Part shown: positions 1-42,077 of the stretch, one piece after another
Numbering within the stretch: position 1 is the first letter of the stretch
How the letters are laid out: the number at the start of each line of letters is the position of its first letter
Source: Proteromonas lacertae
Lineage: Eukaryota
Direction: 5' to 3'
DNA: 64,000 bases
Assembly (NCBI GenBank): GCA_002245135.1
Contig: NGBS01000321.1
Coordinates: 1 to 64,000 of the forward strand
Translations under genes and position numbers: made by a program
The notes under the pieces: model-generated
The model's input: only the letters and a program-made list of their open reading frames with translations
What the model was told of the DNA's origin: nothing
Databases searched by the model: none

Positions 1-3000
1 AATTAATAAATATTGATCCACTAGTTGAAGAACCATTACCTGAATTAACAACAATAGATCCACTTATACTCTCACCACTTCCACTATTTATTAATATATT
101 GCCACTAATGCTACCATCTCCAGTGGAAATTTCAATGTAACCAACATCGGTAGTAGCATCACTTGTACTAAAATGTATTGATCCACTTGTTGATTTACCA
201 TTTCCACTTAGTATATTGATTGAACCACCTATGTTACTACTTCCACTAAGTATATAAATTGAACCACCTGTTGATGTACTTTTACCACCTGTCATATTTA
301 TTGAACCATCATCACTTAATAAATAGATTGATCCACTGGTACTTTTACCATTTCCACTTTCTATATTTATACTTCCTCCTAAACTTCCACTTCCACTCAC
401 CAAAAAGATTGAACCACCACTTGTATTACCACTACCTCCTTCTAATAAGATTGAACCAACTTTATTAGAATTACCACTTAGAATTGTTATACTACCACTT
501 GTTACACCTGTTCCACTTATTATTCTTGTATTACCACCTGATTTACCACTTCCATTTTCGATAAAAATACTTCCACCACTTGTTTCACTTCCATCTATGT
601 GAATATTGATTGATCCAACTGTAGAATCAGATGATCCACTTTCGATTGTTAAAGACCCACTGGTTGAGCTACTAGATCCACTCTTTATTAAGATTGAACC
701 ACCACTTGAACCATTTCCACTATCAAACGATATTGAACCACTTACTTTTGATCCATTTCCACTCAGTATTGATATACTTCCACCTATTTCATTTCCATCT
801 TCATTCAAGATAAAAATACTTCCTGAGGTTGTTTTACCACTTCCACTAACTATTTCGATTGAACCACTTTTTAATCCACTTCCAGTAGTCAATAATATTG
901 AACCAACATTGGAACTACCATCTCCACTTTGGATTCTTATTTCACCTACAGTATTACTACTTGAACCACTTTCGATTAAGATTGAACCACTTGTACTTTT
1001 ACTACTACCACTTTCAATAGTTATTTCACCTCCATTATCACTTCCACTTCCACTTTTAAGATATAATGATCCACTCGTTGAACTTCCACTTCCACTTTCA
1101 ATATAGATTGAACCACTCACTGTATTATTTTCACTGAATATTTGGATTTCACCACTGGTAGTTTGGCCTGCTCCACTTAATATATTTATTGAACCACCTA
1201 TTCCAGATGATTCACCTCCATTTATAAATATTGAGCCACCACTAGTTGTTCCTTTTCCTCCTTTTAATAATATTGAACCACTACTATTGGATCCATTACC
1301 ACTTTTCACATATATTGAACCTCCACTGTTACTACCATTTCCATTTTTTATATTGATTGATCCACCAATTTTACTACTTCCACTTTCTATTGAAATATTG
1401 CCACCAGCTTTATCATTAGCTTCACTACTTCCACTCTTTATTAATATTGAACCAACTACAGTAGCATTACCACTTTCTATATTTATTGATCCACTTGTTA
1501 ATTTACCACTTCCACTTAGTATATTGATTGAACCACCTATGTTACCACTTCCACTAAGTATATAAATTGAACCACCTGTTGATGTACTTTTACCACCTGT
1601 CATATTTATTGAACCATCATCACTTAATAAATAGATTGATCCACTGGTACTTTTACCATTTCCACTTTCTATATTTATACTTCCTCCTAAACTTCCACTT
1701 CCACTCATCAAAAAGATTGAACCACCACTTGTATTACCACTACCTCCTTCTAATAAGATTGAACCAACTTTATTAGAATTAGCAGTCTTAATGAACACAT
1801 TACCAGATGTAGAACCATGTCCACTTAAAAATTGAATTGATCCACCTAGTAAACCTACTCCTGATTCAATGTTAACTCCTCCTCCTTCTGATCCAGTACC
1901 AGAAGATATTTGAATTGATCCTGATTGATTCGCATCTTCAGTTCTTATAAATATTGATCCACTTGTATTTCCTGTGTTACTAAATATTGTTATTGATCCT
2001 CCTTCTGCTGCTGAACCAGATTCAATAAATATTGATCCTCCTGTTGACAAACCATTTCCTGGAATTACATTGATTGATCCTGCATTATTTGATCCTTCAA
2101 CTTTTATATATACTGAACCACTTGTTGATGTTGAGTCTGCAGAAGCAATGTTTACAGAACCACTTTGACCAGTACCTTGATTACCACTGTGAATATTAAT
2201 ATATCCAGCTTTAGTCTGTCCATTTCCACCTATAAATGAAATAGATGAACCAATCTGTGATGATCCAGTGTTAATTGTTATTACTCCAGAGTTTGTTGCT
2301 CCATTTGTTTTAATATTAATTATTCCACCTTCATTACCATCTCCACTTAATAAATTAACACTACCACTTACACTACCACTTCCTGAAGCAATGACAATAG
2401 ATCCAACTGTAGTTGCAGATCCAGTATTGATAAAAATACTACCACTTGTTTTTCCTTTTTCAGTTTGAATAGATACTGAACCAGATTGTGATGCACTTCC
2501 AGTAGTTAAATGGATATCACCGCCCAAGTTATATCCACTACCAGCTAAGATAAAAACACTTCCTGCAGATTCTGTAGATGTACCGACTTTCATTAATATA
2601 TCACCTGTATAATCACTACCTTCAGTATGAATAGATACATCACCAGAAGCACTAATTGTATCGTTAGTTGTTAAAATAATAGCACCTCCATAATCTTTTC
2701 CTGTTCCAGATCTAATATAGATTGAACCACCAGTATCTCCTGATGATGAACCACCTATTGCATTAATGTTTCCAGCTTTACCAGCACTTTCAGTTTGAAT
2801 TAATATAGATGCTGAAATACCTTTATTTTCATCTTTGGGACTTTTACCAAGGATTAAAACAGATCCACCAATATTGGAACTATCACCTGCATTTACATAT
2901 ACATTACCTCCTTGTTGATTAACTAAACTTGAATTACCAGCTGTAAATCTAATATCACCAGTCAATTGTTCATCACCAGTTTCGATATATATTTCACCTG

Positions 3001-6000
3001 ATCTTCCTTCTTCAAAAGATGCTCCTGTAGAGAATGTTATATTTCCACCAAGATCAAAACCATCACCAGAAGTAACATTCAAATCACCTCCTTTTGATGT
3101 TAATTTTGTACCTGATTCAATAAGAATATCACCTCCACTTTTACCTGTTGAAGTTCCTGGTTTAATTAATATTGAACCAGCAGAACCATCATCACCAGTT
3201 GCAATAGATAAAGAGCCACCTTCACCATTAACAGATTCAGACACACTAGTAGTAATACTAACATCACCACCTTTATTAAATCCATCTCCTGACTGTAATG
3301 ACACAATTCCACCAATATCTTCTCCTTTACCTCCTCTTACTAATATATCACCAGCTAAATTTCCATTACCTGGAGAGATTAAGATTTGTCCTGCTGTTGA
3401 AATTGAATTTCCAGTAATAAATGATATACTACCTGATTTACTTAATTCAGAATTACCAGTTGCCATTTTAATATCTCCTGATATTGATGTTGATGAATAA
3501 CCAGTTGTTGTTGATATTGATCCACTAGTTGTTGTACCAGATCCTCTTACTTCTAAAACACATGGAGTACTTCCAGTTGACAAACCTGATAATACATAAA
3601 CATCACTAGCAGTTTCACCTTTACCACCTTTAATTTCAATATCAGCAACAGTACCAGTAGAATTACCAGTTAATATTTCAATATTACCACTATTCTTAAC
3701 TGCAGATCCTGATATGAATGCTATTGAACCAGTTTTACCAGTTTCTTCATTGTTGTTAGTTGTTATACTAATTGATCCTGTAACATTATTTGCTATACCT
3801 GATATAAACTCAATCATTTCCTCCTAATGAATTACTTCCACTACTAGATCCTGATTCAATATTCACTGTACCTCCTTGTTTTAAATAACTACTACCAGCT
3901 TTAAACTTAACAGATCCACCATCATTTTGATTTGATGAACTTGCATTTACAACAATATAACCTCCTTCATAATTCAATGATCTTCCACCTTCTAATGAAA
4001 TTGATCCTGCAGCTGCTTGTGAATCACCAGTTTGGAACAATATAGATCCGGATGAACTACTTAAAGCATTACTTGTTTCAAATGTTATATTTCCTGCTCT
4101 ACCATCACTTTGATCAGTTCTAATGATAATTCTACCACTATCTCTTCCACTTCCTGATGTAACATTAACTACACCTCCCACAGAGACTTTACTATCACCT
4201 GCAGTAATAAATATAGATCCTGCTACATCGGTTGATTTTCCTGGATTTATATGAATTGATCCACCTAGTATCTGACTTGAACCAGCTTTGAATGTGATTG
4301 TTCCACTTGATTGACCATATAAGGTATTTCCTTCAGTATTTATAACAATACCACCAGAACTAGATGATGATGCACTTCTAATATAAATATTTCCACTTGA
4401 AAAACCACCACCTGATACAATATTAATATTTCCTCCATTACCTGATGTATCACTATTACCAGTTACTAAATTAATTGAACCAGTCTTTGAATCTGCATTT
4501 ATGACTATTCTTATATCACCACCTTTATTAGATTTTGATTTACCTGTCTTAATTGCAATTGAACCAGATTCTATTGATGAACTTCCTGTCTTGAAATTAA
4601 TACTTCCACTTGTTGTATTGGATGGAGTACTTGCATATATTGATCCTGATTCTCCTGACACAAATCTTACATCTCCAGCTTTATTATTTGATTCACCACT
4701 TTGTATTTTTATATTACCAGATTCTAATCCATTACCTGTCTTTAATTCTACACTTCCTGTTTCTCCATTGTCTGTTGTTTTTCCTGAAGTTAATGATATA
4801 ATACCAGAATTAGCAGCATCACCAGTCTTAATATTGAAATTACCACTTTCTTTACCAATACCACTTTCTAATGTAACATTTCCTGATACTTTTCCATATC
4901 CACTCTTTACATTTATATCTCCACCTTTTTCATTTAAGGATGAACCAGTTTCAACAGTTATATTACCAGCTGCAACAGGTGAAGATCCTGATTCAATATT
5001 AATTGATCCTCCATCTAATCTACCATTACCACCAGTGAAAGTTATAGATCCACTATTCAAGGATGAATCTGTTACAATTTCAATATCTCCAGAACTAGCT
5101 GAATCTTCTGATTTTATCATTATTGCACCAGATGAACTTACTCCTTGACCTGATCTGAATACAATACTTCCTGATGTTTTTGATTGGCTTGTTTCAATGT
5201 TAATATCACCAGATTCTCTATTAGATGATCCACTTTCTAATACTACCTTTCCACCTTCTGTCTGCATATTATTACTAGCTGATACTAATATATCACCTCC
5301 TTTATTACTTGATGATCCTTTAAAAACTATATTTCCTACTTCATTCTGTGAATCTCCTGTATTTATTCTTATACTTCCAGATATTTTCTCACTGTTACTG
5401 GAAGATAATTTAATAGAACCACTATTCTGTTCACCTTTTGCAGTATTAACTACTATTGATCCACCACCTGTTTTACCTTTACCAGCTTCAAAACTGATTA
5501 TACTACCATCTCCAGAAGTTGATCTTCCACCTGCAATCTTTATACTTGTTCCATCCAAATATGATGATTTACTTCTTAATATAATTGATCCAGATTTTGA
5601 AAGAGCTGAAGATCCAGTTTCTACAATTAATGATTTAACTCCAGCATTGATATTAATATCACCAGATTTAGATAAATCTGAAAGATCAGTTTCAAATTTA
5701 ATATTACCACTTGAAGCAGCGCCTTCACCTGATTTGAATGTAATACTTCCACCATAGTTATTCCTTGAATAACCACTACGTAGAATAATATTTCCACCTT
5801 TTACACCAGATCCAGCTTCAAACATTATTTGACCTGAATTATCATTCTTACTACTACCAGTTGTCATTTCAATATCTCCTGATTTCTGTACAGATTTACC
5901 TGTATTTACAAATATTGTACTATTTCTTCCTTTTGTTGTATATGAGATTGATCCACTTACTTTTGAATCAGCAGTAATCATATTCACATCACCACTACTT

Positions 6001-9000
6001 CTACTTTCAGATTCACCTGATTTTATATAAATGGATGATGCTATACCTCCAGAACCAGTTTCAAATCTAATAGTGCCAGAAACATCAGAAGAAGAATCAC
6101 CACTCTTAAACTCAAAATTACCTGACTTTGTATTACCTACACTATTTCCAGTAATCATTGATATATTACCAGAAACTACTGATGATGGAGTAATGAATGA
6201 AATTTCACCACTTTTATCAATACCACTTCCACTTTTAATATAAATATCACCTCCATTATCTTTCGATGATGAACCTGATTTTACTTCTATTACTCCACCA
6301 CCTGACACTCCTGAACCAGAATTAAATGTAATCTTTCCTGATGTTTTACTATCTCCTGCTTTCATTCTTATATCACCACTCTGTGAATAATGTTCATTTG
6401 TCTTAATTTCAATATTTGATTCCATTGATTTGAATGAAATATCACCTCCTTTTATTACACCTGCTCCTGATTCAATGTTAATGTTTGATCCTTCTAAATT
6501 GATATTTCCTGATGAACTGTTTGATGACGTTAAGAATGATATTGCACCAGATTTAATACTTGAATCACCTGATTCTATTAATACTGAACCAGATAATGCA
6601 GTTCCATTTCCTGTGGATAAATCAATCATACCTGACTTTCCTTTATTACTATATGATTTCACATCAATATTACCACTTGATCTTCCTCCTTTTCCTGATT
6701 CAATATTAACAGATCCTAAGAATCCTGATCCACCAGTAATCTTGATAGAAGCTCCATAATAATTCTTTCTATTTAACACATTTTTACCTGCTCGAATGTA
6801 TATATCACCAGATTTTCTCCATGCTTTACCTACTTCTATTACAATAGATCCTGCTTTATTAGAATTGGATGTTTCCAGTCTAATTGAACCTGATGCTTCA
6901 TTTCCATTACCTGTTTTAATACTAACAGATCCACTATCCACTGATGAAACTCCTGTAACTAATTGAATATCACCACTACCAGATACACCACTTCCTGTCT
7001 TAATTGATATATAACCAGATGTGCCTTTAGATTGTGATGTTATATAAGACATATTACCACTCGTTGAAACACCTCTTCTTGTTATTATTCTTAAATCACT
7101 TGATTCTTCATTTGATTTTCCTGTTTCGAAGTTGATATTTCCACCTTGAGCAGATTCACTATTCAACGAGCTTCCAGCATTTATTTCAATATCTCCTCCA
7201 CTTCCAAATATATTACTTGATCCAGCTTTAAGAACAATAGATCCACCAATAGATCCATTTTCCACTTTGAATTTGATATCACCATCTTTTGCATTGGATG
7301 ATCCACTTCTTAGCTTTAGACTACCAGCTTTTCCACTTATAAATGAAATTGTGCCACTTGGTATTGAAGATGATGAGTAACTATTTGATGATTTTATATT
7401 CAACATATAATTTGATTGCAATTCAATACTTCCACTTATTTCACCACTTTCTGAACCAATCTTTATACTTCCAGAAACAATACCTGAATTAGTCTTGAAT
7501 CTTAGATCACCAGTCTTTGATTTAGCTTCTGTCATAATATGAAGATATCTACTGTCTTTTATTGATACTGAACCAGTATTTCCATTTTCGCTATTACCAG
7601 CTTCAATATTCAAAGTGGATGAAGCATCGACTGTTATTACACCTGAATCACTTGATTTACCAGTTTCAATTATTACATCTCCTCCAACTTTACCAGAACC
7701 TGTTTTTACATGAATTGCTCCATATTTATTGAATGAATTTGTGTTAATATCTATACCACCTGACATTCTCTTACCTTCACCTGTCATAAAGTATATATCA
7801 GCTGAGTTTCTAGAAGAATCTTCCAGTTTCAATCATAATCTTTCCTGATTTCAAACTCTTTGATGATTCTATTTCAATGTTTCCTGAAGATTTTGATGCA
7901 CTTCTTCCTGTTTCAATTTCAATATTACCAGCATCTTTCTTATTACTTGAACCTGATTTAAATATCACAGATCCAGCTACTCCATCATTTACATTCATTG
8001 CATTAATAATTATACTGCCAGCATTATTCTTATTTGTAATATCTATTGTTGAACCAGCTTTAAATCTAACATCTGAACTTGAAATAATATCAATAGATCC
8101 TGATGATTTTCCAGCTCCTGTTTCAATTAGTATTTCTCCTGTTTCTGATGAAGTTGTTGTTTGAATATCTATTGAACCAGATACTAATTCTCCATCTTCT
8201 GTTTTTATCTTAATTTCACCACTTTCATCATCAGAATTTCCTGTTTCGAATGAGACTTTTCCAGATGATTTTTTCTCTGATTTTCCTGATTTTATATTTA
8301 TAGGAGAACCTGCAATACCGCTTCCTCCTAATAATTCAATATCTCCACCATTATATGTGTTTATTGCTATAGATCCACCATTATTACTATCAACAGAAAA
8401 TCCAGTTGAAATATTCACAGATCCACCTATTGTACCATTACCACTCACCATATTTATATCACCTCCTTTAGATGATGAATCTCCTGCAATTATATTCAAA
8501 CTTCCACTTTCTACTTCAAATGATATACTTCCTGATTTTGAACCATTTCCAGTTTGAATATTTATATTTCCACTTGATAATTCACCAATACCAGTCATAA
8601 ATGATATTCCTCCTGTTTTGTCTGATTCATCATTAGTTGTTATTATTTTTATTGATCCAGATTCTACACTTGATTCATTACTCTTTAGATTTATTGAACC
8701 TCCTTCAATTTTACCTTCACCTCCTTTCATTACTATTTCACTTCCTATTCTGTTATTAGATTCACCTGGTTTTAATGTAATATTTCCAGATATAAAATTG
8801 ATTGAACCACCATCAGCAAAACTACTACTACCTATTTCCATGTTTATATCTCCTGATTTACTATTACTTTCACCAGTTTCAATTGATAATTCACCATTTG
8901 TACTTTCAAATACTATTGATCCTGATTGAATATCACTCTTTCCTGATTTTATATATACATCTCCTCCTTCAGATGAACCTTCTCCTGATGATAATTTAAT

Positions 9001-12000
9001 ACTTCCACCAGTTTTACCTTCTTCTGTCTTAAATAATATATCACCAGCTTTTCCATTCATATTCAAACCAGATGTAATGGTTGTATTACTATCATCTAAA
9101 TTGTTATCTAAATGAAGTGTAATTTCGCCAGCTAATGTTCCATTTCCAGTTACAAATTCAATATCTCCAGTTGATCTAGCATTATCACCTGTATGTAACA
9201 ATATTTCACCTGATTTTGAAGTACCATTTCCTGTTTCAATATCTATTGATCCACTTACAGCTGTTCCTGTTGTACTGATCTTTACATCACCACCTCTACC
9301 AGAGCCTTGTGCTGAATTAATCTCAATATTACCTGGTAAAGATTTATTACCTCCTGCTATTAATGTTATACTTTCATCGATTTTGATTGAAGCACCTTTA
9401 ATACCATTTGATTCTCCTACATTTATTTCTATACTTCCTGATTTTCCATTGTAGGATATTGATCCAGTTTCAAAATCAATACCTCCAGATTCTCCTCCAT
9501 TTGTTTTGGCTGTTTCTAGCTTGATTGATCCAGAAACTTCCTTTTCACTATTTCCTGTTTTTAATGAAATTGAGCCAGATGTTTTGGGTGATGAAGTGTT
9601 GTTATATCTATATCACCAGTCTTACCATCAGGACTTGCACCAGACTCGAATGAAATATCACCTCCTTCACCATTCTCTGAATTACCACCATTTATCACTA
9701 TGTTTGATGTTACTTTTTCACCATTTCCTCCTTGAATTGTTATATTACCAGCACTAGTAGAACTAGCTGTTTCAAATAATATAGAACCTGTATTAGCACC
9801 ATCTCCTATCTTTAAATTCAAATCACCACTTCCATCTTTATCACTATTACCAGTATTAATCTTAATACTTCCAGATATAATACCTGATCCAGATTCTAAT
9901 TTTATTGAACCAGCTTCTTTATCACTTCCATGACCAGCTTTAAATGTTAAATTTCCTGATCTCATTGCTGATCCTGTTGTTACTGTTAAGTTACCAGATG
10001 AGGATTGATTACTACTTCCAGTTACAAACTTTATTGTTCCAGCTTTTTTATCAGATGATCCTGTTTCTATTTGAATAAAACCACTTTCTTGGTTGTTTGA
10101 TGTACTTATATCAATAGATCCACTGTTTATACCAGATCCAGCTTTCAAATTAACATCACCACTTGAAATAACACCATAACCAGAAGATAATGTAACATTA
10201 CCTCCATCTTCCTTTTCTTTGTCAAACACATTAATATTTACACTTCCAGATATCTTATTGGATGATCCAGTTTTGATATTAATATCACCAGATGTAATGG
10301 AATTGTCAGTTGTATTACCTCCAGTCATTATTGTTATATTACCAACTTCTTTTGATGCTGTTGTTTCAACATAGATTGATCCTGTTACTTTACCAGAACC
10401 AGTTTCAATATAAATATCTCCTCCATCATTTTGTTCTGATGATCCTGAACTAATTATTAAACTTCCTGATATTTGATTTGAATTACCTGTTCCTAGTTTG
10501 ATTGATCCTGATTCACTCTTTGCATTACCAGTAGACATTTTAGCATTTCCACTATTCTTTAATGCTTCTCCAGTTGCCATTAATATTAAACCAGATTCTT
10601 TCAATGAATCAGCACTTTGAATTGATATTTTACCACTTGTATAGTCATCAGAAACACCAGAATTTACTTTAATATCACCTCCATTATAATCTCCATCAGA
10701 TTTTCCACCAATAAATTCAACATTACCAGCTACTTGATTAGATTCACCTGGTTGAATGATTATATTTCCACTTATCTTACTAATTGATTCTCCTGTTGTT
10801 AATAATATATCACCAGATGAAACTACTCCCTCTCCAGTCATCATTTTAATATTACCACTTGATTTTGCACTTGATTCAGTAGATATTGTTATATTACCAC
10901 TACTCTTTACTGTATTAGATGTAATATTATATCTTCGAGTCAATGCTTGAATACCAGCTAAAATATCCATTGCCATCTTCACTTTATTAACTTCAAGGAA
11001 ATCAACCATTGAGAAATTCTTTTCAGGTATTCTGTATAATTCTTCTTTGACAATATATTCTGGGAATACTTCTTCTACTTCATTGGCAATAAAACCTCTA
11101 ACAGGTCTATCTTTACTATAACCATATTCTTCAGGCATCATTTCACGAACTTCTTTCCATTCTTCGGTGTAAGTATATGACTTAACTTTCAATTGTTGTA
11201 ATCTGAATAAAATATCTTCAACATCTATTCTTTCAATATTTTCTTTTACTCTTCTATCAGATGGATAAATATCTTCAACAAATTGATGTGGAACATGTGA
11301 GAATATCTTATGAGATTGAATTCTAAATACTGCTTTAGATGAACCTTGTAACCTTGATCTCAAATGTCGAATTAAGAATTCTCCATTTTTATCAGTAAAT
11401 TGGATTATATTATCACCTCTTGCTACAGTTTCAAAGTTATTCTTTGGTGGTGTATATATCTTAATTCCATTTTCATCAATTATTAAACGTGGATTAGCTG
11501 AATCGGATATTTCGAATAACGGAGTGGTTATTTCAATATTACCTCCACTAACTGTACCATTTCCACTTACAAATAGTATATTTCCACCATTTGTATTACC
11601 TTTTCCACCTTTCAATTCTATATCACCTCCTTTTCCACTTTCACTATCTCCTCCTTTAAATTCAATATTACCAGCTTGTTTAGCATCTCCACTCTTTATT
11701 GAATAAGTTGATGATTTTTCATATCCATTTCTCATTTTCAAATGAATTTCACCACTTTGTTTCTTACCAGAACCACTCTCAATTTCTATATTACCAGAAT
11801 AATTACCTGATAAAGTTGAAATAGTCAAATTACCACCTGCAAACTTACCATCACCAGCATTCATATTAATTACACTACCATTTCCTCTAGCTGAATAACC
11901 TCCTTCAATTGATATAGCACCAGATCCATTAATAGCATGACCTGATTGTAATACAATTCTGCTAGTCTGACTATAACCACTACCTTTACCAATATTAAAC

Positions 12001-15000
12001 TTAACTGAACCTGAATCACTTACTTCAGTTGATTCAGTTCTTAATGAAATATCTCCACTTGTTGCATTAACTGTATTTCCAGTTACCATATTCACATTAC
12101 CACTACTGCTTCTATGACCTTTACCACTTCGTAATTCTATTTTACCACCTTCAACATCTTCTAGATTATTACCATTAACATCAACATCACCAGCTGATAC
12201 TTCGATATCTCCACCTTTATATAAACCATCTCCACTAGTTAATTCCATTTTACCAGCTTGACCATTTACAGAATCTCCTGTTTGCATTGATATATCACCT
12301 GATTTTTGTTCACTTTCGCCTGTTTTAATGTCAATTTTACCACTTCCATTTATACCAGAATTTGATGATATATCAATTGAACCAGATGTTTTTCCTTCAC
12401 CACTCTTTAATTTCAATTTTCCTCCATTATTCAAATCTGAACTTCCTGAAGCTAATTCTATTGAATTATCACCACTTTCAGAAAATCCTGTTTTAAATGT
12501 AATATTTCCTGATTTGTCAGTAGAATTACCAGTCTTAATATTAATATATCCAGATTCTAATTGTGATTTGGATGTTTTTAATTCAATTGATCCTGTATTG
12601 TTTGAATTAGCAGTTTTTACTAATAAATTTCCTTTTTGTCCAGATATAAAATCTACATTTCCTCCTTTACCATTATCAGAAGAACCAGCTGTCATTCTTA
12701 TTACACCACCATCAGTCAAATTGGATAAACCAGCAGTTAATGAGATAGATCCAGCTGTATATTCACTATTACCAGTCTTAATATTAACATTTGATGAATA
12801 ATTACCATTTCCTGTTTGAATATCTATTGAGCCAGATAGTTTAGCAGAATTTGTTCCTAATTTTATATCACCACTTATATCAGATATTCCACTTTTTAAT
12901 GACACTGATCCTGACTCATCACCTTTACCAGATAACAATTCTAAATCACCACTCTTTTCTTCGGCAATTCCAGTTTTAATAGTCTGCTTTCCTGATATAA
13001 ATGATGATTGAGTTTTAACTGATATTATACCTGATGTAGTATTACTGTTGCCAGTTGTTATATTGATTGATCCAGAGATAAATGAATCTTTTGTATCAAT
13101 CGAGATTGAACCACTTTTACCAGTTATACTTGATCCACTTACCATTCGAATTGATCCACTTGAATTAGATGTTTCAGACGAGGTTTCAATTATTAAATCT
13201 CCACCTTCACTCTTGGATTTACCTCCATGAATTCCTATATTACCACCTACACCTTTATCATTATCACCTCCTTTAAACATAACAGATCCACCAGATTTTG
13301 AAGATTCGGTTGAACCAGCTTTTATATTGATTGAACTACCATTCAATTTCCCAGATCCACCTATTAATTCGATATTGCCTACATTAGAATGACTCGAATT
13401 TCCTGTCTCAATCAAAATCATTCCATTATTCTCGATACTGTTTTCTATAGAAATTTCAATTGATCCACTTTGATTAAATCCACTACTACTCATTATTATA
13501 TTTCCTCCTTTCATCTCACTCGCACCACTAGATAATTCGATATTTCCATAACTTCCTGATTTTATACTGATATTTCCACCATCTAACTTACTTGAATTAG
13601 ATATTAATATTGAACCACCTACGATTGTGCCATTTGAACTTGTCACATTTCCACCTTTCAAAGAGATTGAACCACTTGAGTCTTTACTGTTTATTGTGTT
13701 GATTTCAATTGAACCACTCACTGACACTTCATTGGTACTATTTCCTGTCTTGATTTCTATCTTACCACTGGAATCTTTATTACTTGAACCACTTTCGATT
13801 ATGATTTTACCATTATTCTTTCCTTTACCACTTTCAATATAGATATCACCTCCTTCAGATGTCTTTGATCCACTTCCACTCAACATTTCAATTGAACCAC
13901 CTACTGAACCACTTGATTCACCACTGTGAATCATTATAGAAGAGGAATTATATAAACTAGAACCTCCAATTATATCGATTGGACCACTTTCTTTACCATT
14001 GTTACTAGACATTTCAATTGAACCACTGTCTTTTTCACTTGCACCACTCTTCAACAAGATTGAACCACTTTCACTGTTGTTACTTTTACCACTGGAAATT
14101 TCTATAGATCCACTTAATACTTTACTTTCACCACTTATCATCTCAATTGAACCACTTGATTTTTTACTAGATCCACTTTCGAATGATAAAGATCCACTAT
14201 TATTCACACTTTCACCGCTAGACATTTCTATTGATCCACCTACACCATTCAGATTTTCATCAACTTTTATTAAGATTGAACCACTTTCATCTTTACCTTT
14301 TCCACTCTCGATTAAGATTGAACCACTTAGTTCATTTCCATCATTACTCATAATCTTTATTGATCCATATTCTTTTCCACTTCCACTCTTCAAGGTTAAA
14401 TCACCTCCAGAAATTCCTCCACTTCCACTTATACTAATAATAGAACCACCAATCTTATCACTTTCACCAGCTTTCAAAACTATTGAACCACTAGAAATTT
14501 TACTTGAACCACTCAATAAGATTACATTTCCAGAAGTAGATTGACTATTTAGTTTATCACCATTTCCACTGGATAAGCGGATTTTACCACTTTCAGATTC
14601 GGCATTTGAACTTCGTAATTCTATTGAACCACTTTCTATTTCACTTGACCCACTCTTGATCGAGATTTTACCTCCTTCACCATCTTCAAACATACTATCA
14701 CCACTCTTTAAGTGGATTGATCCACCTAATTCAGATCCAGAACCTATCTCGAACTTTATTGAACCACTTGATTTTTCACTTGAACCACTCTTTAAACTTA
14801 TATCTCCTGATGAACCACGACTGTTACTACTTTCGATTATTATTGATCCACTGGATTTACCTTCACCACTTTCGATCTTTATTGAACCACCAAGTTCTAA
14901 ACTATCTCCACTTTCAAGCTTGATTGAACCACTTAAACCATTTCGACTTTTACCTCCAATTATTTCAATAGAACCACCATCTTCTTTTATACTCGAGCCA

Positions 15001-18000
15001 GCTTTCATTTTTATTTCACCTACAATTCCTTCTTCACTATCTCCACTCTTAAATTCTATTGAATCACCACTCTCTTTTTCTTTACTTCCTCCTACTATTT
15101 TCATTGAATTTGATTCACTTTCTATTGAAATATCACCACTTTTATTTTCACTGGATTTACTGGAAACGGAAATTTCAAAACCTTTCAACGAGATTGTACC
15201 AGATGATCTTAAACCACTTCCACTTTCAATGGAGATTTTACCACCTTCACCAATACTTTCACCTATCTCAAATTTTATATTACCACTTGAATTACTACTC
15301 TTACCACTAGCAATCAAGATTGAACCACTTGTCCAATTACCTGAATTTCCTGTTTTCATTAATATTTCACCACTTGTTCCATTTCCAGATGTATTACCAG
15401 TTTCAATAAATACTCCACCTTTAATTAATGAATTTTCAGTTTTATTAACCTGTATACTAATTGAACCTGAATTCTTAGATAGATGATATATTGTTTCTTT
15501 TGTAGAACCAGTTACTAATCTGATTGAACCAACTTCTTTAGCTTTGCTTGTTTGAATTACTATATAACTCTTAGCTTTTATATTTATATCTCCAGATACA
15601 CTACCTTCACCTGTTTTTGCAGAAATGCTACCTGATGTAGTATTACTGTTGCCAGTTGTTATATTGATTGATCCAGAGATAAATGAATCTTTTGTATCAA
15701 TCGAGATTGAACCACTTTTACCAGTTATACTTGATCCACTTACCATTCGAATTGATCCACTTGAATTAGATGTTTCAGACGAGGTTTCAATTATTAAATC
15801 TCCACCTTCACTCTTGGATTTACCTCCATGAATTCCTATATTACCACCTACACCTTTATCATTATCACCTCCTTTAAACATAACAGATCCACCAGATTTT
15901 GAAGATTCGGTTGAACCAGCTTTTATATTGATTGAACTACCATTCAATTTCCCAGATCCACCTATTAATTCGATATTGCCTACATTAGAATGACTCGAAT
16001 TTCCTGTCTCAATCAAAATCATTCCATTATTCTCGATACTGTTTTCTATAGAAATTTCAATTGATCCACTTTGATTAAATCCACTACTACTCATTATTAT
16101 ATTTCCTCCTTTCATCTCACTCGCACCACTAGATAATTCGATATTTCCATAACTTCCTGATTTTATACTGATATTTCCACCATCTAACTTACTTGAATTA
16201 GATATTAATATTGAACCACCTACGATTGTGCCATTTGAACTTGTCACATTTCCACCTTTCAAAGAGATTGAACCACTTGAGTCTTTACTGTTTATTGTGT
16301 TGATTTCAATTGAACCACTCACTGACACTTCATTGGTACTATTTCCTGTCTTGATTTCTATCTTACCACTGGAATCTTTATTACTTGAACCACTTTCGAT
16401 TATGATTTTACCATTATTCTTTCCTTTACCACTTTCAATATAGATATCACCTCCTTCAGATGTCTTTGATCCACTTCCACTCAACATTTCAATTGAACCA
16501 CCTACTGAACCACTTGATTCACCACTGTGAATCATTATAGAAGAGGAATTATATAAACTAGAACCTCCAATTATATCGATTGGACCACTTTCTTTACCAT
16601 TGTTACTAGACATTTCAATTGAACCACTGTCTTTTTCACTTGCACCACTCTTCAACAAGATTGAACCACTTTCACTGTTGTTACTTTTACCACTGGAAAT
16701 TTCTATAGATCCACTTAATACTTTACTTTCACCACTTATCATCTCAATTGAACCACTTGATTTTTTACTAGATCCACTTTCGAATGATAAAGATCCACTA
16801 TTATTCACACTTTCACCGCTAGACATTTCTATTGATCCACCTACACCATTCAGATTTTCATCAACTTTTATTAAGATTGAACCACTTTCATCTTTACCTT
16901 TTCCACTCTCGATTAAGATTGAACCACTTAGTTCATTTCCATCATTACTCATAATCTTTATTGATCCATATTCTTTTCCACTTCCACTCTTCAAGGTTAA
17001 ATCACCTCCAGAAATTCCTCCACTTCCACTTATACTAATAATAGAACCACCAATCTTATCACTTTCACCAGCTTTCAAAACTATTGAACCACTAGAAATT
17101 TTACTTGAACCACTCAATAAGATTACATTTCCAGAAGTAGATTGACTATTTAGTTTATCACCATTTCCACTGGATAAGCGGATTTTACCACTTTCAGATT
17201 CGGCATTTGAACTTCGTAATTCTATTGAACCACTTTCTATTTCACTTGACCCACTCTTGATCGAGATTTTACCTCCTTCACCATCTTCAAACATACTATC
17301 ACCACTCTTTAAGTGGATTGATCCACCTAATTCAGATCCAGAACCTATCTCGAACTTTATTGAACCACTTGATTTTTCACTTGAACCACTCTTTAAACTT
17401 ATATCTCCTGATGAACCACGACTGTTACTACTTTCGATTATTATTGATCCACTGGATTTACCTTCACCACTTTCGATCTTTATTGAACCACCAAGTTCTA
17501 AACTATCTCCACTTTCAAGCTTGATTGAACCACTTAAACCATTTCGACTTTTACCTCCAATTATTTCAATAGAACCACCATCTTCTTTTATACTCGAGCC
17601 AGCTTTCATTTTTATTTCACCTACAATTCCTTCTTCACTATCTCCACTCTTAAATTCTATTGAATCACCACTCTCTTTTTCTTTACTTCCTCCTACTATT
17701 TTCATTGAATTTGATTCACTTTCTATTGAAATATCACCACTTTTATTTTCACTGGATTTACTGGAAACGGAAATTTCAAAACCTTTCAACGAGATTGTAC
17801 CAGATGATCTTAAACCACTTCCACTTTCAATGGAGATTTTACCACCTTCACCAATACTTTCACCTATCTCAAATTTTATATTACCACTTGAATTACTACT
17901 CTTACCACTAGCAATCAAGATTGAACCACTTGTCCAATTACCTGAATTTCCTGTTTTCATTAATATTTCACCACTTGTTCCATTTCCAGATGTATTACCA

Positions 18001-21000
18001 GTGGTTATGTTAACTGAACCAGATTCTGATAATCCACTACCAGTTTCCATATTAATATTACCACCTGCAGTCTTTCTATTTACTAAATCATCAACATCTC
18101 CAGCTTCAATTCTGATACTACCATCTTCAGTAGCTCCATTTCCTGTTTCTAAATTGATATTTCCTGATTCTGGACCATTTGTTGAAGTTGTTTTAACATC
18201 AATATTACCAGATATACCATTCATTGAATCACCTGTTTTGAATGACACATTACCAGATGCAATTGTATTTTCTTTACTTTCAACAGAGATAATACCACCA
18301 TAAGCATTATTCTCTCCTTTACCTCCTTCAAATGAAATATCACCTGTATTACCACTGTAACTATTACCAGTCTTCATGTCAATATTTCCAGCTGTTTTGC
18401 CACTTCCACTCTTTATATTGATATTTCCTGATATAATCTTACTATTACCTACAGTCACATTGATTGATCCAGATTCATCAGATGATGATGATGAAGTATT
18501 TATGAGGATATTACCTGAAATGACATTAGAGTCTTCAGTAGTGAAGTAAATTGAACCACTTTCAGTTTTACCACTTCCACTCTTCATTGATAATATTCCT
18601 CCATTATCCTTTTGAGAACTACCACTCTTGAATGATGTTGATCCTCCTACAGATTTCTCGCTTGAACCTGCATTGAAGTAAATAGAACCTGTTTTATTAT
18701 TTGCATCATTTACTTTAACAATAATAGATCCAGATTTATCAACTGAATCTCCTGACTTTAATAAGATTGAACCAGATAAAGCAGATGAATCATTAGTCAT
18801 TAATTTAATTGAACCGCTATTTCTTTTTTCACTTTCACCTGATTTTATATCAATATTACCACTCTCAATACCATTTCCTGTTTTAATAGTCATATTACCA
18901 CTTTCTAAACCTTGAGATTTTCCTATTTTGAACTGAATTGAACCAGATCCATCTTTACTATTTCCTGTTTGTACTTTGATCATTCCACTATTACTGCCTG
19001 AACCAGTAGTATAATTAACAGATCCACTTTGTTTATTTGATTCTCCAGATGCAATTGCAAAATTACCACTTGTTAAGTTCATTGAATTACCAGTTTTCAT
19101 TTCAATATTACCACTTGTTAATGATTCAGCAGTAATTATTGATATTTCACCAGAATCTTCTTTTTCACTTGAACCAGTCTTAATATCAATATTACCACTG
19201 ATTCCATTATTACCATTTCCTGATTTTACATTAATATTTCCTCCATTTACACCAGATCCAGCTTTAAATTGGATTGATCCACTTTCTTTTCTTCCTGAAC
19301 CAGCTTCTAATGTCAAATTACCACCTTTACCTTTGGCATTAAAAGAATTACCAGCTTCAACTGTAATATTGGATGGTTTAACAGAATTATAGTTATCAAC
19401 TGTTATTTCAATACGACCAGCTTGTGAATTACTACTATCACCAGTTACAAGCTCAATTGATCCTGAAGATTTCTTTGAACTTTCAGTTTTGAATGATACA
19501 TCACCACTTGTTCCATTTAATGCACTTGTTTGAATGGTTATATTACCAGATGGGAAATATTTATCTGACTTTGTCTGTAACAATATACTACCACCAATTG
19601 AATTACTATCTCCAGCTTCAAACTTTATACTTCCAGATGATTCTTTACCATAATTTGTTTGGATTTTAATACTTCCACTTTGATTTTCAGCATCACCAGT
19701 TTGTAGAATAAAACTACCTGACTTATCAGGTCCATTACCTGTTGTAATATCAATTGATCCACTAATCTGTCCATTTGCAGTATCTAATCTAATAGATCCA
19801 CTTACACCTTCTTCACCTTCAGTATTACCTGATTTAACTATTATTTTACCACTATTACCCATATTCAATTTAGATCCAGTTTCAAATGAAATATTTCCTC
19901 CTATTCCATTACCTAATGAATCACCACCTTCTAATAATACATCACCACCATTGGCTTTATTATATTTACTCTTATCTAAACTTGATCCACCTACAAATGA
20001 GATTGAACCAGCGGTTAAACCACCTGATCCTGATTTGATGTTTATATCTGAACCATCTGTAATATCTGTATTACCAGAATGAATATTAATTCTTCCATTT
20101 CCTTTTTCAGAATTTCCTGTCTTAAATGATAAACTACCAGACTTTGATCCTGATTCTCCAGTTTCAATGATTAAAGATCCACTGTTTACATCATCAACAG
20201 CTGATAATACAATAGAACCACTTAAAACACCATTACCACTTTCAATAGAAATAGTTCCACCTGATGTTTGTTTTGATGAGCCAGATAACAAAGTCATATT
20301 AGAATGAATTGATGTAATGTTAATTGAACCACCATTCTCTGATAGAGATGAACCTGCATAGAATGAAATAGAACCTGGTACATTGTTAATTGAATCACCT
20401 GATCTAATAGAGATTGATCCAGCTTTTAGAGCATCAGATTGTTGGATATAAATAGATCCACTCTTTTCAACACTTTCACCAGTTTCAACATTAATATTTC
20501 CACCAGAAACTACATCACTATTACCAGCTTTTAAATTGATTCTAGCTCCATTACCTTCAGCTGTTGTACCTGTACGAATATTTATCTTTCCACTATCACC
20601 ATTTAAACTATTTCCAGATTCAATTGATAAACTGCCTGTTGAGCCATAGTTATTACCTGTAATGAATGAAATAATACCACTACTTTTAGTTGAATCAGGT
20701 GTATTTATAATAACAGAACCAGAAATGAAATTATCACTACTTCCTGAATTAACACTAATATCACCACTTTTACCTGAATTACCTTTTCCACTCTTTAACA
20801 TGACAGAACCACTACGTTGTTTCTGAGTTATTCCATGTGTTGAACCAGCATTAATAACAATCATTCCACCAATACCATTCACTGAAGATCCAGCAATGAA
20901 TTCAACATCACCACCATTTCCTTTATTAACATTTTTTGAAGCAATGAGTGTAATTTCACCTGATTTATCACTACCACTGCTTTTACCAATTTGAATATAC

Positions 21001-24000
21001 ATATCACCAGGTATAACATTCTTTACATTTCCTGTTGTGAATAATAATTCACCAGATATTGTTCCACTATTTCCAGTATTCAATGAAATTGAACCAGATA
21101 TTGGTGATATTTCAGTCTTCAATACAATACTACCTGAAACACCATTTGGAGCTGTTCCTGTAATACCTACAATTGATCCACCAGTTTGTGAATCAGATGA
21201 ACCAGCTTCAATTTGTATCATTCCAGTATTCATCAATCCTTTACCAGTTATTAATGATATTGATCCTGCTTTATTTATATCTGAATTAGCTGTTTCAATT
21301 AAGATTGAACCAGAACCTAATAATCCATCTGAATTACCACTTTCTATTGCAATTGATCCACTTAAACCTCTTTGGACTGATGAGGTTTTGATTGAGATTT
21401 CTCCACTTGATTTCTCACTTTCACCAGTTTTCATATAAATAGATCCAGTTAAACCACTATCAGATTTACCAGTTTCAACAGCTAATTTTCCTGCATTATG
21501 TTTGCTAGTTAATCCATCACTACTACCTGATGATATAACAATACCACCAGATGTTTTATTTGAATTATAAGTGGTAATATTAATTGAACCACCTAAAATA
21601 CCATTTCCACTCTCTAAGTCAATACTTCCACTATTTTTACCACCAGATATACCAGCTTCAACGACAATATTAGCTGGTGTAATTGACTCGCCAGTTTCAA
21701 TGTCAATAGTTCCAGAACTATTAGTCAATGATAATCCAGTCTTAAATGCAATATCACCAGTTCTACCAGAAACAGATGAACTTGTTGACATATTAATATC
21801 ACCAGTCTTATTCTTGCCAATACCTGATACTATACTCACATTACCTCCTAATCCTGTAACACTACTTCCACCTGATAATAATACATCACCTCCGGTATCA
21901 GTGGATGTTTTACTGTATGTATCACCACCTTTAATATCAATATTACTACCTGTTAAACCTGATCCTCCTTTAATACTCATATCACCACCTTTAGCACCAT
22001 TCTTATCAGTACTTCCAGCTTCAAATCGAAGAGAACCAGAGGTTAAACCAGCGTTACTTGATTCAATAGTAATATTTCCACTTCCTTCACCATTACCAGT
22101 TTCTATTGTTACATTACCACCTTCATTACCTGAACCAGTAATTACTCGAATTGATCCACTATCATGTTGTAATGCAGATGCATTGGCAGTTTGCATAAGA
22201 ATTGAACCACTAAAACCTTCATCGGATGAACCACTGACAAATTCAATTTTACCTCCTTCTCCTTCTTTAGATGGACCAGCTTTCATTGTAATATCACTTC
22301 CATTACCAGAGAATGAATCACCGACTTTCATATCAATTTCTCCGGAGTAATGATTGGATGATGAACCTGTATGAACTTTAATATCACCTGAATCCTGAGT
22401 TGCATTACCAGTTCTAATTGTAGCATTACCACTTGAACCATATACACTGTCACCAGTTTTAAATCTCATTTCACCACTATTGTATTTCACTGATGATCCT
22501 GTTTCCATTAAAATATCACCACCAGTACCAACATCTCCTTTTCCACCTTTTACTTCAATATTACCTCCACCTCTTGCTTTAGTTCCACTGAGTGATTCAC
22601 CACCAACAGCTTCAATATTTCCACCTCTTCCACCATCAGCAAATGCAGTGTTATTTCTTGTACCAGCTTTTAAGGAAACATTTCCACCTTTACCATTTTC
22701 ATTCTCACCAGCAATGAATAATATATCACCACCACTGTTTGCTTCAGCTTTACCAACATTAAATACTAAGTTACCAACAGTTTCACTACTATTTCCTGTT
22801 TCAATATTGATATTTCCACTTCCAACAATACCAGAAGCTGTAGAGAATGAAATAATACCTGAATTTCCATTTCTCACTGATGGTGTATAGATATTCAAAT
22901 GTCCACTTGCACCTAATGTATTTACACCAGTAGTAACATTAACATTACCACCATTACTTGTAACTGAATCACCAGCTTTAACAAATACATTACCTCCTGT
23001 GTTATTCATTGATTCACTAACAGATATAATCATATCACCAGCAATACTTGAATTGGAATCACCAGTCTTGATAAAGATTGCACCTGCATCTTTTACAGAA
23101 AAACCAACTTGAACAGATATATTTCCTGTATTGCCATATTTACTATCAGCTGTATGAACTATCATATCACCACTTTTACTATCTTTACTTGGTCCTGTCT
23201 GCATAAGCATTGAACCACCATCTCCATTCACAGCAGCACCACCTTCATATTTGATATTACCACCTGATGCTTCTTTATTATCACCATAGGAATGACCAGC
23301 TCTTACTTCTACATCACCTCCACTTCCTCCATTAATATTTGGGTTTGTACCTGAACCAGCTTGAATTGAAACATCACCACCTTCACCATTTGGTTTTACT
23401 GTATCTCCAGCTTTTATTTCAATACTTCCTCCTATTGCTCCATGAGTTTCATCAATATTGAATAAAATATCACCAGCATGACCATTTACTGTATTTCCTG
23501 TTTCAATTTGGATAACTCCAGATTCACCTTGATTACTTTTACCAGTAACAAATTCAATTTTACCACTTTCTCTTCCAGTTGATTCAGTATTAATAACAAT
23601 ATAACCACTATCTCTTTCTACACTCTTTCCTGAGGTAATAGTTGCAGAACCACCAATACCACCAACTGCATTTCCACCTCTTATTTCTACATCACCTCCT
23701 GTCTCATATACCGATCCATGTGAAGATCCAGCTTCAAATGTTAAATCACCACCATTACCTTTATCAGAATTACCACCTTTCATATTGATATTACCAGCTG
23801 GAGTTAAAGCAGCAGAGGTTGAACCAGCTTCAAATGAAACAGAACTACCATTTCCATTGAAACTATCACCTGATCTTATTCTCATACTTCCACTATCACT
23901 TTCATTTGAAATACCAGTTCTAATATCAACAATACCTGCATCTCCTGCTGTTGTATTACCGGTTTCAATATTAATATTACCACTTGAAATACCATCTTTA

Positions 24001-26255
24001 TTTGGCTGATTTGCAGTTGTCAATGATATATTACCTGTTCCAGCTGGTCCTTTACCAGATGTTACATGAATTGAACCACCATTTTGACCAATTGAATTTC
24101 CTCCTTTAAATGTAACATTTCCACCAACTGAATTATTACCTTCACCTCCAATGATAGTGATATTTCCATTTCCTACTGTTCCATTACCAGAAATAACATA
24201 GGCAGTTCCTCCTTTTACTGGACCTTCACCTCCTTCAATACTAATGCTTCCACCATCTTCAGTCTTGGATAAACCTCCTTCTAATGTAATATTACCACCA
24301 TCACCTACAGATTTCTTTATTAAGACAGAAAAACCACCTGCTTTCTTTGCATCTCCAGTTTGCATATATATATCTCCACTAGTGAAATTAGAATCACCAC
24401 TGTCAAATGATACTTCACCAGCTGTGCCATTATCTGAAGTAGATGTTACTATTGATATACTTCCACTATCTCCAATGAGATTAACACCAGTTTCAATATT
24501 AACATCACCTCCTGTATCATTTAAAGATTCACCAGCTTTCATAATTATTGGAGATCCTTCAACATTTGTTGTATTTCCACCTATTATATTGATATCTCCA
24601 GCTTTAACTGGTGAAAATCCAGTATTAATATCAATATTACCAGATGTGTTATTAGCATTACCAGTAGAAATTGAAATATTTCCAGAGTTATTCTCACTAT
24701 TAATACTTGAAATATTAATATTTCCACTTTTACCTGTAATACTTTCACCAGTTTCAATAGTAACGTTACCACCAGTTGCATTATTAGTAGCATTACCACC
24801 TTGTAATAATATACTACCAGCTACACTATCAACATCATTATTATCAACAGAAATACCTTTCATAAACACATCACCACTTGTTCCATTACCAATATTCTTA
24901 CCACTCTTTATATAAACATCACCTCCTTTGGTTGTATTAACTCCTGATCCACCTTGTAATACTAAATTACCTGTAGCACCATGAATAGATGAACCTGTAG
25001 TAATATTGACATTACCTGTTAAGTTTTTACTATCACCACTATTGATTATTATTGAACCTGATATTGGTGCACTTCCTGATTCAAATTTGATTTCTCCACT
25101 TTTAGATTCACTTCCAGCTTTTTCTGTTTGAATAACAAAGTCACCACTTTTATTATTTTCACTTTTACCTGTTGTAAATTCAACAGAACCTCCAGTACCA
25201 TTACCAATTGTATTACCTCCTTGTATATCAATAGAACCAGGTATTTTCTTACTATTTCCACCTTTCAATGTAATATTTCCTGATTTCTTCAATGAATCAT
25301 TCACTACAATATTCACATCACCTGATTTCTTATCACCAATACCTGTATTAATATTAACATCACCAGTTCTATTAGATTCAGTAGATTTAATAATAACATT
25401 ACCAGAAATATTACTATTCTCATGATCATTCACTATAATATCACCACCAACGTTATTATAACCATTTCCACCTGTAATACTAGCAGTACCTCCTTGTCCA
25501 GCTACTGAATTACCTCCAATCATTGTAATATTCTGTTTAGTAGAGGTTATATTGACAGAACCACCAAGTATATTTCCTGCACCAGCTGTTATACTGATTG
25601 AACCTCCTACACTTGAACCATTACCACTTAACATGGTTACATTGTTTGGTGATGTTATATTGAAAATCTTATTGTTCTGGGTCATTCTAGAGGGAGATCC
25701 CAATCCTACTTCACCTCCACTGAATACTTCATCTGCTTCAACATTAAGATTTCCAATAACTGTCTCGTTATTAACAAATGATGTTGGACAGGGAGTTTCA
25801 TACACCATTCCTCTACATTTGGAAGTAAAAACATCATCTTTGATAATACATCTACTCTCTGAAGAACACCAACCACAATCGTCTGCAGATGCGCATGAAG
25901 TACAATCTGTGTAATTAGAACAATTGGGTTTTTCTATTATGGAAATATAGAATATTAAATAATATACTTGGACATATATTAACCTCCTCAGTTGTATATA
26001 ACCATTCGTCACAGTCTAATCCCTCTGCAGGTCCAACCTCATTACCTTCCATACATTGAAGAGAAGAGAGACAATAACCACATCCTGCAGTAACTACGCA
26101 CTTACCACAGTAATCCATCTCATCCCTATAAAATATATAAAACATTATAGCCTATACCAGTATAATCTCCCATTCTCATCATTAAACTGGCTACAGCTAC
26201 TCCCATACGCTGTACCAGTTAATAGTGATAATATTATCACTAAGATCGTAAGCAT
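1..26255 (-). CDS. Giant secreted Gly/Ser-rich repeat fibre protein with N-terminal PSI-like domains and internal Peptidase S74 chaperone domain (3'-partial, at least about 8,700 aa, three apparent 1-nt frameshifts)
   Basis: ATG at 26255 (MLTILVIILSLLTGTAYG, signal-peptide-like). GT-AG introns 26126-26157 (32 nt) and 25934-25967 (34 nt) splice in frame into ORF 9561..26012. The same repeat continues through ORFs 7810..9201 and 3810..7832 and an apparently open frame from about 3815 to the window edge. Frame changes occur at about 9596, 7821 and 3818. Confidence 0.88.
202..1781. repeat. Direct repeat of about 272 bp (202-473 and 1510-1781), offset 1,308 bp, inside the giant CDS
   Basis: ORFs 259..468 and 1567..1776 differ by one residue; I see two nucleotide mismatches; the offset is in frame. 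Confidence 0.9.
10929..11261 (-). other. Peptidase S74 / intramolecular chaperone autoprocessing (ICA) domain within the giant protein
   Basis: SDRRVKENIERIDVEDILFRLQQLKVKSYTY...VRGFIANEVEEVFPEYI...MDILAGIQAL matches the SDxRxK...GfIAqEv..vfPe.V...l..aiqeL pattern of endosialidase, tail-fibre and MYRF chaperone domains. Ser codon 11259-11261, Lys codon 11244-11246. Confidence 0.9.
13028..18002. repeat. Direct repeat of about 2,374 bp (13028-15401 and 15629-18002), offset 2,601 bp, inside the giant CDS
   Basis: Identical translated ORF pairs offset by exactly 2601 (13627/16228, 13999/16600, 14717/17318, 15059/17660). Boundaries read by eye; the spacer is 227 bp and the offset is a multiple of 3. 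Confidence 0.95.
25780..26110 (-). other. Two tandem PSI (plexin-repeat-like) Cys-rich modules at the N-terminus of the giant protein
   Basis: CGKCVVTAGCGYCLSSLQC...C..W...CP and CSNYTDCTSCASADDCGWCSSESRC...C...CP; the CxxC...CG(W/Y)C...C pattern is typical of PSI repeats. Confidence 0.75.
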
Positions 26256-39963: not shown

Positions 39964-40062
39964 TTAATTTGTATATTTTTTATTAGTTTTGTTTTATTTT
40001 TTATACAAATAACAAACAAATCAATAAAAATAAGTGTTATATAATAATAATAATACTATTTA

Positions 40063-41987: not shown

Positions 41988-42077
41988 CAAAATTAAAAAA
42001 CTGAAAAAGAATACACCTAATACACTTAATACAACTGTATTATTTTTGATTCATTTTTATTTTGAATTAAAAAATAT

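Follow-up and report, generated by a model that had tools for sequence, protein, structure and literature searches.

An internal S74/ICA domain in a giant Gly/Ser-repeat gene of Proteromonas lacertae and its predicted autocleavage

The window analyzed here is a 64,000-nucleotide stretch of a Proteromonas lacertae contig, and its content is eukaryotic: the DNA is AT-rich, carries BBS1, RGS, TRM13, GILT, kinase and Hsp70 genes, and contains GT-AG introns of 29-35 nt. A single minus-strand gene fills bases 1-26,255, starting at an ATG at 26255 and running off the window edge; all coordinates of its features below refer to the minus strand. Exon 1 (26158..26255) encodes this Met and a hydrophobic N-terminus that resembles a signal peptide when judged by eye, and the end of the exon resembles an exon end in two metagenome loci, L010 and L011. 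It is followed by intron 1 (26126..26157; 32 nt, GT-AG, AT-rich, of the same size class as the BBS1 introns), by exon 2 (25968..26125), which encodes a first Cys-rich PSI-like module that is 45-48% identical to its L010/L011 counterparts across 42 aa (E about 1e-10), and by intron 2 (25934..25967; 34 nt, GT-AG, AT-rich). A PSI (plexin repeat) module lies at 25830..25925, where it scores 27.4 bits against PF01437 (cut-off 23.1) and is 41-43% identical to L010/L011. A Pfam scan from exon 3 to the window edge returned only this PSI module and an S74 domain above cut-off, with no Ndt80-type DNA-binding domain. Neither the N-terminal 644 aa nor the family profile matched a fibre or hair protein when searched by sequence against the PDB, and the leads from an Atlas search with the N-terminal part as query were all below 0.9.

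A Gly/Ser-rich repeat of about 4,725 aa occupies 11526..25700 and comprises ~325 units with a mean period of 14.5 aa. Units span 13-15 residues and follow the consensus [SG]G[SND][IV]x[ILF]x[TS]G, which is identical on both sides of the ICA domain described below. Ser and Thr make up 25-30% of the repeat, a composition compatible with a glycan-bearing stem, and NxS/T sites occur at 2.6 per 100 aa. Structure models of the repeat are of low confidence, with a pLDDT of 34 for a single-sequence model and of 50-74 for the repeat parts of a later model in which strands are mostly unassigned. By analogy with the TLP-12 glycofibril and with S74 biology, the upstream repeat likely folds as a triple-beta-helix fibre, and the gene likely encodes a secreted giant repeat protein for which a three-stranded fibre is predicted. 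Two 100%-identical copies of 2,374 bp (13028-15401 and 15629-18002, together spanning 13028..18002) lie within the array, separated by a unique 227-bp in-frame spacer and offset by 2,601 bp, or 867 codons. If this duplication were an assembly artefact, the N-terminal part could be about 4,110 aa long and not 4,976; a real recent event is favoured because of the unique spacer and because similar 99.5% duplications occur in another metagenome locus, L006. A second internal duplication, 96% identical, is found in the downstream repeat (152-473 versus 1460-1781).

The repeat is interrupted by a non-repeat linker of ~88 aa (11262..11525), a predicted beta-meander that ends in Pro-4976 and whose model (pLDDT about 50-70) matches triple-beta spikes and unrelated meanders equally, at Z about 6. 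Directly after it lies a Peptidase S74/ICA domain (10932..11261), which matches PF13884 with 49.4 bits (cut-off 22, E=5.8e-13) in the context IYP/SDRRVKENI, where the slash marks the predicted cut, and which ends in an 18-residue helix. Counted from the ATG at 26255 with both short introns spliced, the Ser of the Ser-Lys dyad is residue 4,977 exactly (11261-11259), and the Lys is residue 4,982 (11246-11244). The initial annotation had described an S74 domain with an intact dyad sitting mid-protein in the repeat, its Ser numbered 4977 and preceded by a single non-repetitive interruption of about 90 aa, and each of these points is borne out. A family HMM applied to all six frames detects one ICA alone in the window, at 139 bits with a runner-up of 3.6.

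Both sequence and fold place this domain closest to the MYRF ICA. As a single sequence, its nearest PDB entry is the MYRF ICA 7dc3 (E=3.4e-6); with the profile, 7dc3 is matched at E=2.6e-16 and the best phage chain at 0.008. The domain model, mostly at pLDDT 74-95, matches 7dc3 with Z 9.1 (rmsd 4.3 A, 130 residues), the sole match with Z of at least 8 among 48,161 chains, followed by 3gud (Z 6.2) and 3gw6 (Z 5.9). The window copy shares nine of the ten mappable MYRF residues for which mutations are described in the available sections of PMC8326128 (S587, R590, K592, Y615, Y617, I637, F666, V669 and K671), the tenth, Q639, being N here. According to the same sections, MYRF is cut between P586 and S587, S587A or K592A abolishes the cut, a Y615A/Y617A double mutant is not cut at the P586/S587 site, and replacement of Q639 by Ala reduces cleavage specificity (PMC8326128). 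Motif residues present in the window copy comprise the S, D, R and K of the SDxxxK dyad, both Tyr, G-x-I, F, V, N and K. Autocleavage at Pro-4976/Ser-4977 is likely because the window copy retains this catalytic residue set. The final helix is ~18 residues long in the model as against four heptads in MYRF, where the four-heptad coiled coil drives trimer formation in the part of PMC8326128 that is available. Taken together, this is a true S74/ICA domain that belongs neither to MYRF nor to a phage fibre.

The repeat restarts at 10931 and continues in frame with the domain for 444 codons (9600..10931). Frame break 1 (~9597) and the stop of the assembled frame (9563-9561) both fall within 9561..9599, and the assembled frame ends 566 residues from the Ser to give a 5,542-residue product. 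The repeat is taken up by a second frame of 589 stop-free codons (7828..9594) as far as frame break 2 (~7822), by a third of 1,335 stop-free codons (3816..7820) as far as frame break 3 (~3815), and by a fourth of 1,271 codons (2..3814), which is open at the window edge and holds neither a second ICA nor a membrane helix. From the ICA to the window edge no membrane helix was found, the top 19-residue hydropathy being 1.24; as the gene continues past the edge, a more distant anchor or a terminal ICA may still follow. These three further frames hold 3,195 codons, so that 3,639 downstream codons are stop-free apart from the breaks, and both codon-position GC and repeat consensus resemble those upstream. 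The downstream stretch reaches 3,643 codons at the window edge only when three single-base frame breaks are bridged, in agreement with the earlier figure of more than 3,600 codons for a repeat resuming after the final helix if the frameshifts are bridged. Introns were considered as the cause of the breaks and rejected, as there is no AT-rich GTA..AG site there, unlike at the 5' end of the gene. Each frame break sits in a short A or AC run. Such runs are a frequent site of long-read errors, and the three breaks are probably errors of sequence.

To place the domain among its relatives, HMMER was run against 1.84 billion representatives and returned at least 150 matching proteins; the family profile applied to the matches listed identified 155 domains in 149 proteins. 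Counts given for this family are of related sequences and not of independent events. Among the matches listed, 69 domains in 65 proteins have the repeat on at least one side. A repeat also follows the domain in 20 of the 30 listed cases that combine an upstream repeat with a complete domain; two others lie just below the repeat threshold, and the remaining eight end within 40 aa and could include true C-terminal domains because most relatives are fragments. Seven of 17 metagenome loci hold a repeat-linked domain, and the frame continues beyond it for 84-1,587 codons in six of those seven. L010 and L011 each combine a PSI-like N-terminus (41-48% identity) with an internal domain less than 7 kb downstream, and first-half length therefore varies. 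As far as these sequences can tell, the internal layout is a trait of the family and is not peculiar to the window gene.

The named eukaryote relatives, six of 30 looked up, are all stramenopiles, namely the oomycetes Phytophthora infestans (PITG_01491), Nothophytophthora, Aphanomyces euteiches, A. astaci and Achlya hypogyna and one ochrophyte, Phaeothamnion confervicola; the source organism of the window is therefore likely a stramenopile too. The domain of protein P0004 is 45% identical to the window domain, and P0043, whose source label reads 'archaeon', groups with the eukaryote clade in the tree. An Atlas cluster of 133 members is mainly eukaryotic with Oomycota commonest. None of 37 pattern matches in prokaryote genome contigs was confirmed as a relative; word-index protein searches also returned no relatives, which is weak evidence given that the full HMMER search did find them. 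In a FastTree analysis of 99 domains, from which rows with incomplete domains were left out, the repeat-linked clade has a support of 0.93 and is separate from MYRF-like and viral-like rows. A phylogeny had been put forward initially as a test of lateral origin: the tree does set the clade apart, and no donor is claimed. Outside this clade, P0093, P0109, P0126 and P0142 form a small clade of their own that is neither MYRF nor fibre; these proteins begin with a hydrophobic segment, continue through a short stalk into an intact S74 domain and close with a tail rich in Cys. Over its 2,217 codons, the fibre gene of one metagenome contig (L007:1-6651, plus strand) contains 10 in-frame TAG but neither TAA nor TGA, and the repeat continues across each TAG, which suggests that this eukaryote reads TAG as an amino acid.

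Several relatives carry more than one domain per chain, and in these the dyad is not always intact. P0002 has three domains spaced 365-389 residues apart with dyads S-K, A-K and D-K, P0003 has two (S-K and A-K), and L006 has three inside the repeat of one open 3,919-codon frame, which are intact, Ser-less and intact in turn. The L006 gene (6459-11758, plus strand) consists of three units, each a domain plus about 470 repeat codons. Identity among its repeat stretches is 99.5-99.7%, and domain 1 equals domain 3 in sequence, yet domain 2 is of a divergent Ser-less type; either the spacers have been homogenised on both sides of an old dead domain or the assembly is at fault. Across the matches listed, both dyad residues are kept in 44 of 61 repeat-linked domains (8 rows with incomplete motifs left out), and the Ser is lost in 17 of the 61 as compared with 1 of 37 repeat-free domains. 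Ser-less domains occur at about six places on the tree, which is weakly supported. Ser-intact domains keep the positions equivalent to K592 (45/45), Y615 (43/45) and K671 (39/41), whereas Ser-less domains keep them in 8/17, 9/17 and 7/16 cases; the Fisher P values are below 0.002, which overstates the significance as kin were treated as independent. Retained in the Ser-less domains are D588 (17/17), R590 (16/17), the Pro of FPE (17/17) and F666 (16/16). Since catalytic residues are kept with the Ser and lost without it, we argue that selection acts on cutting in the Ser-bearing domains, the window copy among them, and since 17 of 61 domains lack the Ser, cutting would be dispensable at some nodes. 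This pattern fits one domain put to two uses inside a fibre, as a putative cutting knot and as a knot that may only hold.

The reading we prefer, at a probability of about 0.68, is that the gene encodes a secreted precursor in which the ICA domain forms a trimer, brings the chains upstream of it into line as a triple beta-helix, cuts between Pro-4976 and Ser-4977 and then heads a second fibre. The signal peptide would direct the chain into the ER, where three ICA domains would come together and thereby align the chains that precede them, yielding a triple beta-helix of ~325 units. By analogy with TLP-12, at 4.8-9.6 A per unit, such a fibre would be roughly 155-310 nm long, and it would probably be glycosylated. 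The Ser-Lys dyad would cut after trimer formation, and the ICA would be kept, not discarded as in phage fibres, to become the head of the downstream repeat. The downstream product would contain at least 444 aa of repeat, rising to more than 3,600 aa should the frame breaks prove to be errors of sequence. Precedent for the cut comes from the available text of PMC3742443, in which the internal ICA of MYRF cleaves autonomously, E. coli included. For the family, the domain would be a folding knot within the fibre, where intact copies would cut and Ser-less copies would only hold register. The initial proposal of cleavage into two giant halves retains its internal position and its autocleavage, as predicted from residues and relatives, and its giant second half hangs on the three frame breaks. 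Several points count against the preferred reading: ICA domains fold the sequence N-terminal to themselves in the available text of PMC3742443, and the window shows nothing that would nucleate a fibre downstream of the domain; the final helix is short, Q639 is replaced by N, the models of the repeat are of low confidence, and Ser-less relatives are frequent.

The frame breaks may instead be real, in which case the precursor has 5,542 residues, its C-terminal product has 566, and the rest is a decaying tail or a young pseudogene. This account, which we hold to be doubtful but deserving of weight, is partly compatible with the preferred reading, as cleavage may still happen without a second giant half. 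It gains from the fact that none of the three breaks lies at an intron-like site and that all three fall downstream of the domain, in 43% of the gene seen, a placement with a chance of about 0.08; moreover, the frame changes at the 5' end of BBS1 all fit short introns (by eye), giving no hint that errors are frequent elsewhere. The downstream codons themselves argue otherwise, being free of stops apart from the breaks and like the upstream ones in codon-position GC and consensus, as do the A or AC runs at each break and relatives in which as many as 1,587 codons stay open beyond a domain. Further from our expectation is a domain that serves as a structural knot in one continuous fibre, either uncut in vivo or cut with its parts still bound, an arrangement that appears unlikely. 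The viability of uncut nodes is attested by the excess of Ser loss among repeat-linked domains at several places on the tree, and the repeat is identical in kind on both sides of the domain. Yet copies with the Ser preserve the catalytic residues as a set and copies without it lose them as a set, as selection for cutting would have it, the first domain seen in P0002, P0003 and L006 is an intact one, and the N-terminal part of MYRF is released after its cut in the available text of PMC3742443.

A viral fibre gene of a giant virus or polinton-like element lodged within the host genome is very improbable. S74 fibres of up to 3,900 aa are described as common in protist polinton-like viruses in the accessible part of PMC12220804, and viral members make up most of two among the three best Atlas clusters. 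The gene nevertheless has host-type introns and a signal-peptide-like start, its Pfam-named neighbours are cellular (12 ORFs scanned), its N-terminus is conserved in other eukaryote contigs, and this repeat precedes the domain in none of nine viral loci with a domain match (12 fetched). A viral control set that enters this count likewise shows the repeat in none of six loci with a domain match (7 fetched).

Comparison with known systems brings out what is particular to the preferred reading. The available part of bioRxiv 10.1101/2025.09.30.679562 presents TLP-12 as a solved triple-beta glycofibril with Amoebophrya A0A8J1ZHD7 (19,853 aa) as its proposed source, again a protist protein of giant size that combines Gly/Ser repeats with an ICA, and the model for the fold proposed here. 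As described there, that protein has a 12-residue GSxxSx7 repeat, comes from alveolates and carries its ICA at the C-terminus, and the TLP-12 fibre is a triple beta-helix with glycans. In contrast, the present repeat is of 13-15 residues ([SG]G[SND]IxIx[TS]G), belongs to stramenopiles and has the ICA inside it, and chains of this family sometimes hold several ICAs, some without the catalytic Ser. By this analogy, the window protein would behave as a fibre precursor of the TLP-12 type whose chaperone has shifted to an internal position. MYRF/MrfA, as covered in the available text of PMC3742443 and PMC8326128, shares the nearest solved domain in sequence and fold, a eukaryotic host, an internal position and the P/SDxRxK site, and keeps both cleavage products, as is proposed here. 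There the ICA is cytosolic and stands after an Ndt80-type DNA-binding domain and before a membrane helix, whereas the window protein is likely secreted, has fibre repeat on both sides and has a final helix about half as long.

Phage ICA domains (K1F endosialidase, T5 L-fibre) likewise have the SDxxxK Ser-Lys dyad and act as chaperones for trimeric beta-helical fibres. There the domain terminates the protein and is cut off, whereas here 444 in-frame repeat codons follow it. The earlier statement that phage-type S74 domains are C-terminal agrees with our phage- and bacterial-type controls, where 11 of 12 loci with a match (14 examined) have a frame that stops 22-68 aa beyond the matched stretch. 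Long fibres with a terminal S74 domain are also reported in the available sections on Bdellovibrio MAT fibres (PMC10769870) and on polinton-like virus fibres (PMC12220804). Oomycete entries named 'Peptidase S74 domain-containing protein', such as PITG_01491, belong to the same clade and have the same repeat; they are annotated as short hypothetical fragments of 378-859 aa in the named matches. PITG_01489-01493 are not named in the literature searched. Neither an ICA flanked by fibre repeat at both ends nor natural Ser-less copies are described in that literature, which covers subscription journals thinly, and the available portions of PMC8213781, PMC13659346, 10.64898/2026.10.13.758971 and 10.64898/2026.09.11.750887 contain nothing on an internal domain.

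Elsewhere the S74/ICA domain caps the ends of viral and bacterial fibres, where it is disposable, or acts as the release switch of MYRF; here it lies inside a likely fibre. We tentatively raise the possibility, not the likeliest outcome, that the giant surface fibres of stramenopiles arise from single precursors, each bearing live and dead chaperone knots of the phage type; if true, the number and position of live knots would set the fibre count per gene and the length of each. With natural live and dead copies in one chain, it can be tested directly if the chaperone role is separable from cutting, and also how trimeric beta-helices thousands of residues long fold. For Phytophthora, Aphanomyces and related taxa, the findings indicate a large secreted structural protein that has been mis-annotated, and the family is a candidate source for environmental triple-beta glycofibrils.

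The named relative taxa form flagellated cells, and the BBS1 gene in the window (39900-42050, minus strand; introns of 29-35 nt) marks a flagellated organism, likely a protist. A cryo-EM study of the Ochromonas tubular hair reportedly exists. The group-defining tripartite flagellar hairs carry lateral and terminal filaments in the accessible part of PMC2108286, and it is a long shot that the products of this gene are the fine filaments of that hair. The keyword S74 is absent from the supplements of the zoospore proteomes of Phytophthora (a membrane proteome; 3 files) and Aurantiochytrium (4 files), a search by keyword only, without gene identifiers, that constitutes no test. Elsewhere in the window, a 939-codon ORF (35513-38332, minus strand) contains five RGS domains in an unusual tandem arrangement, and a gene at 58117-59271 (plus strand) encodes a protein with two GILT thiol-reductase domains.
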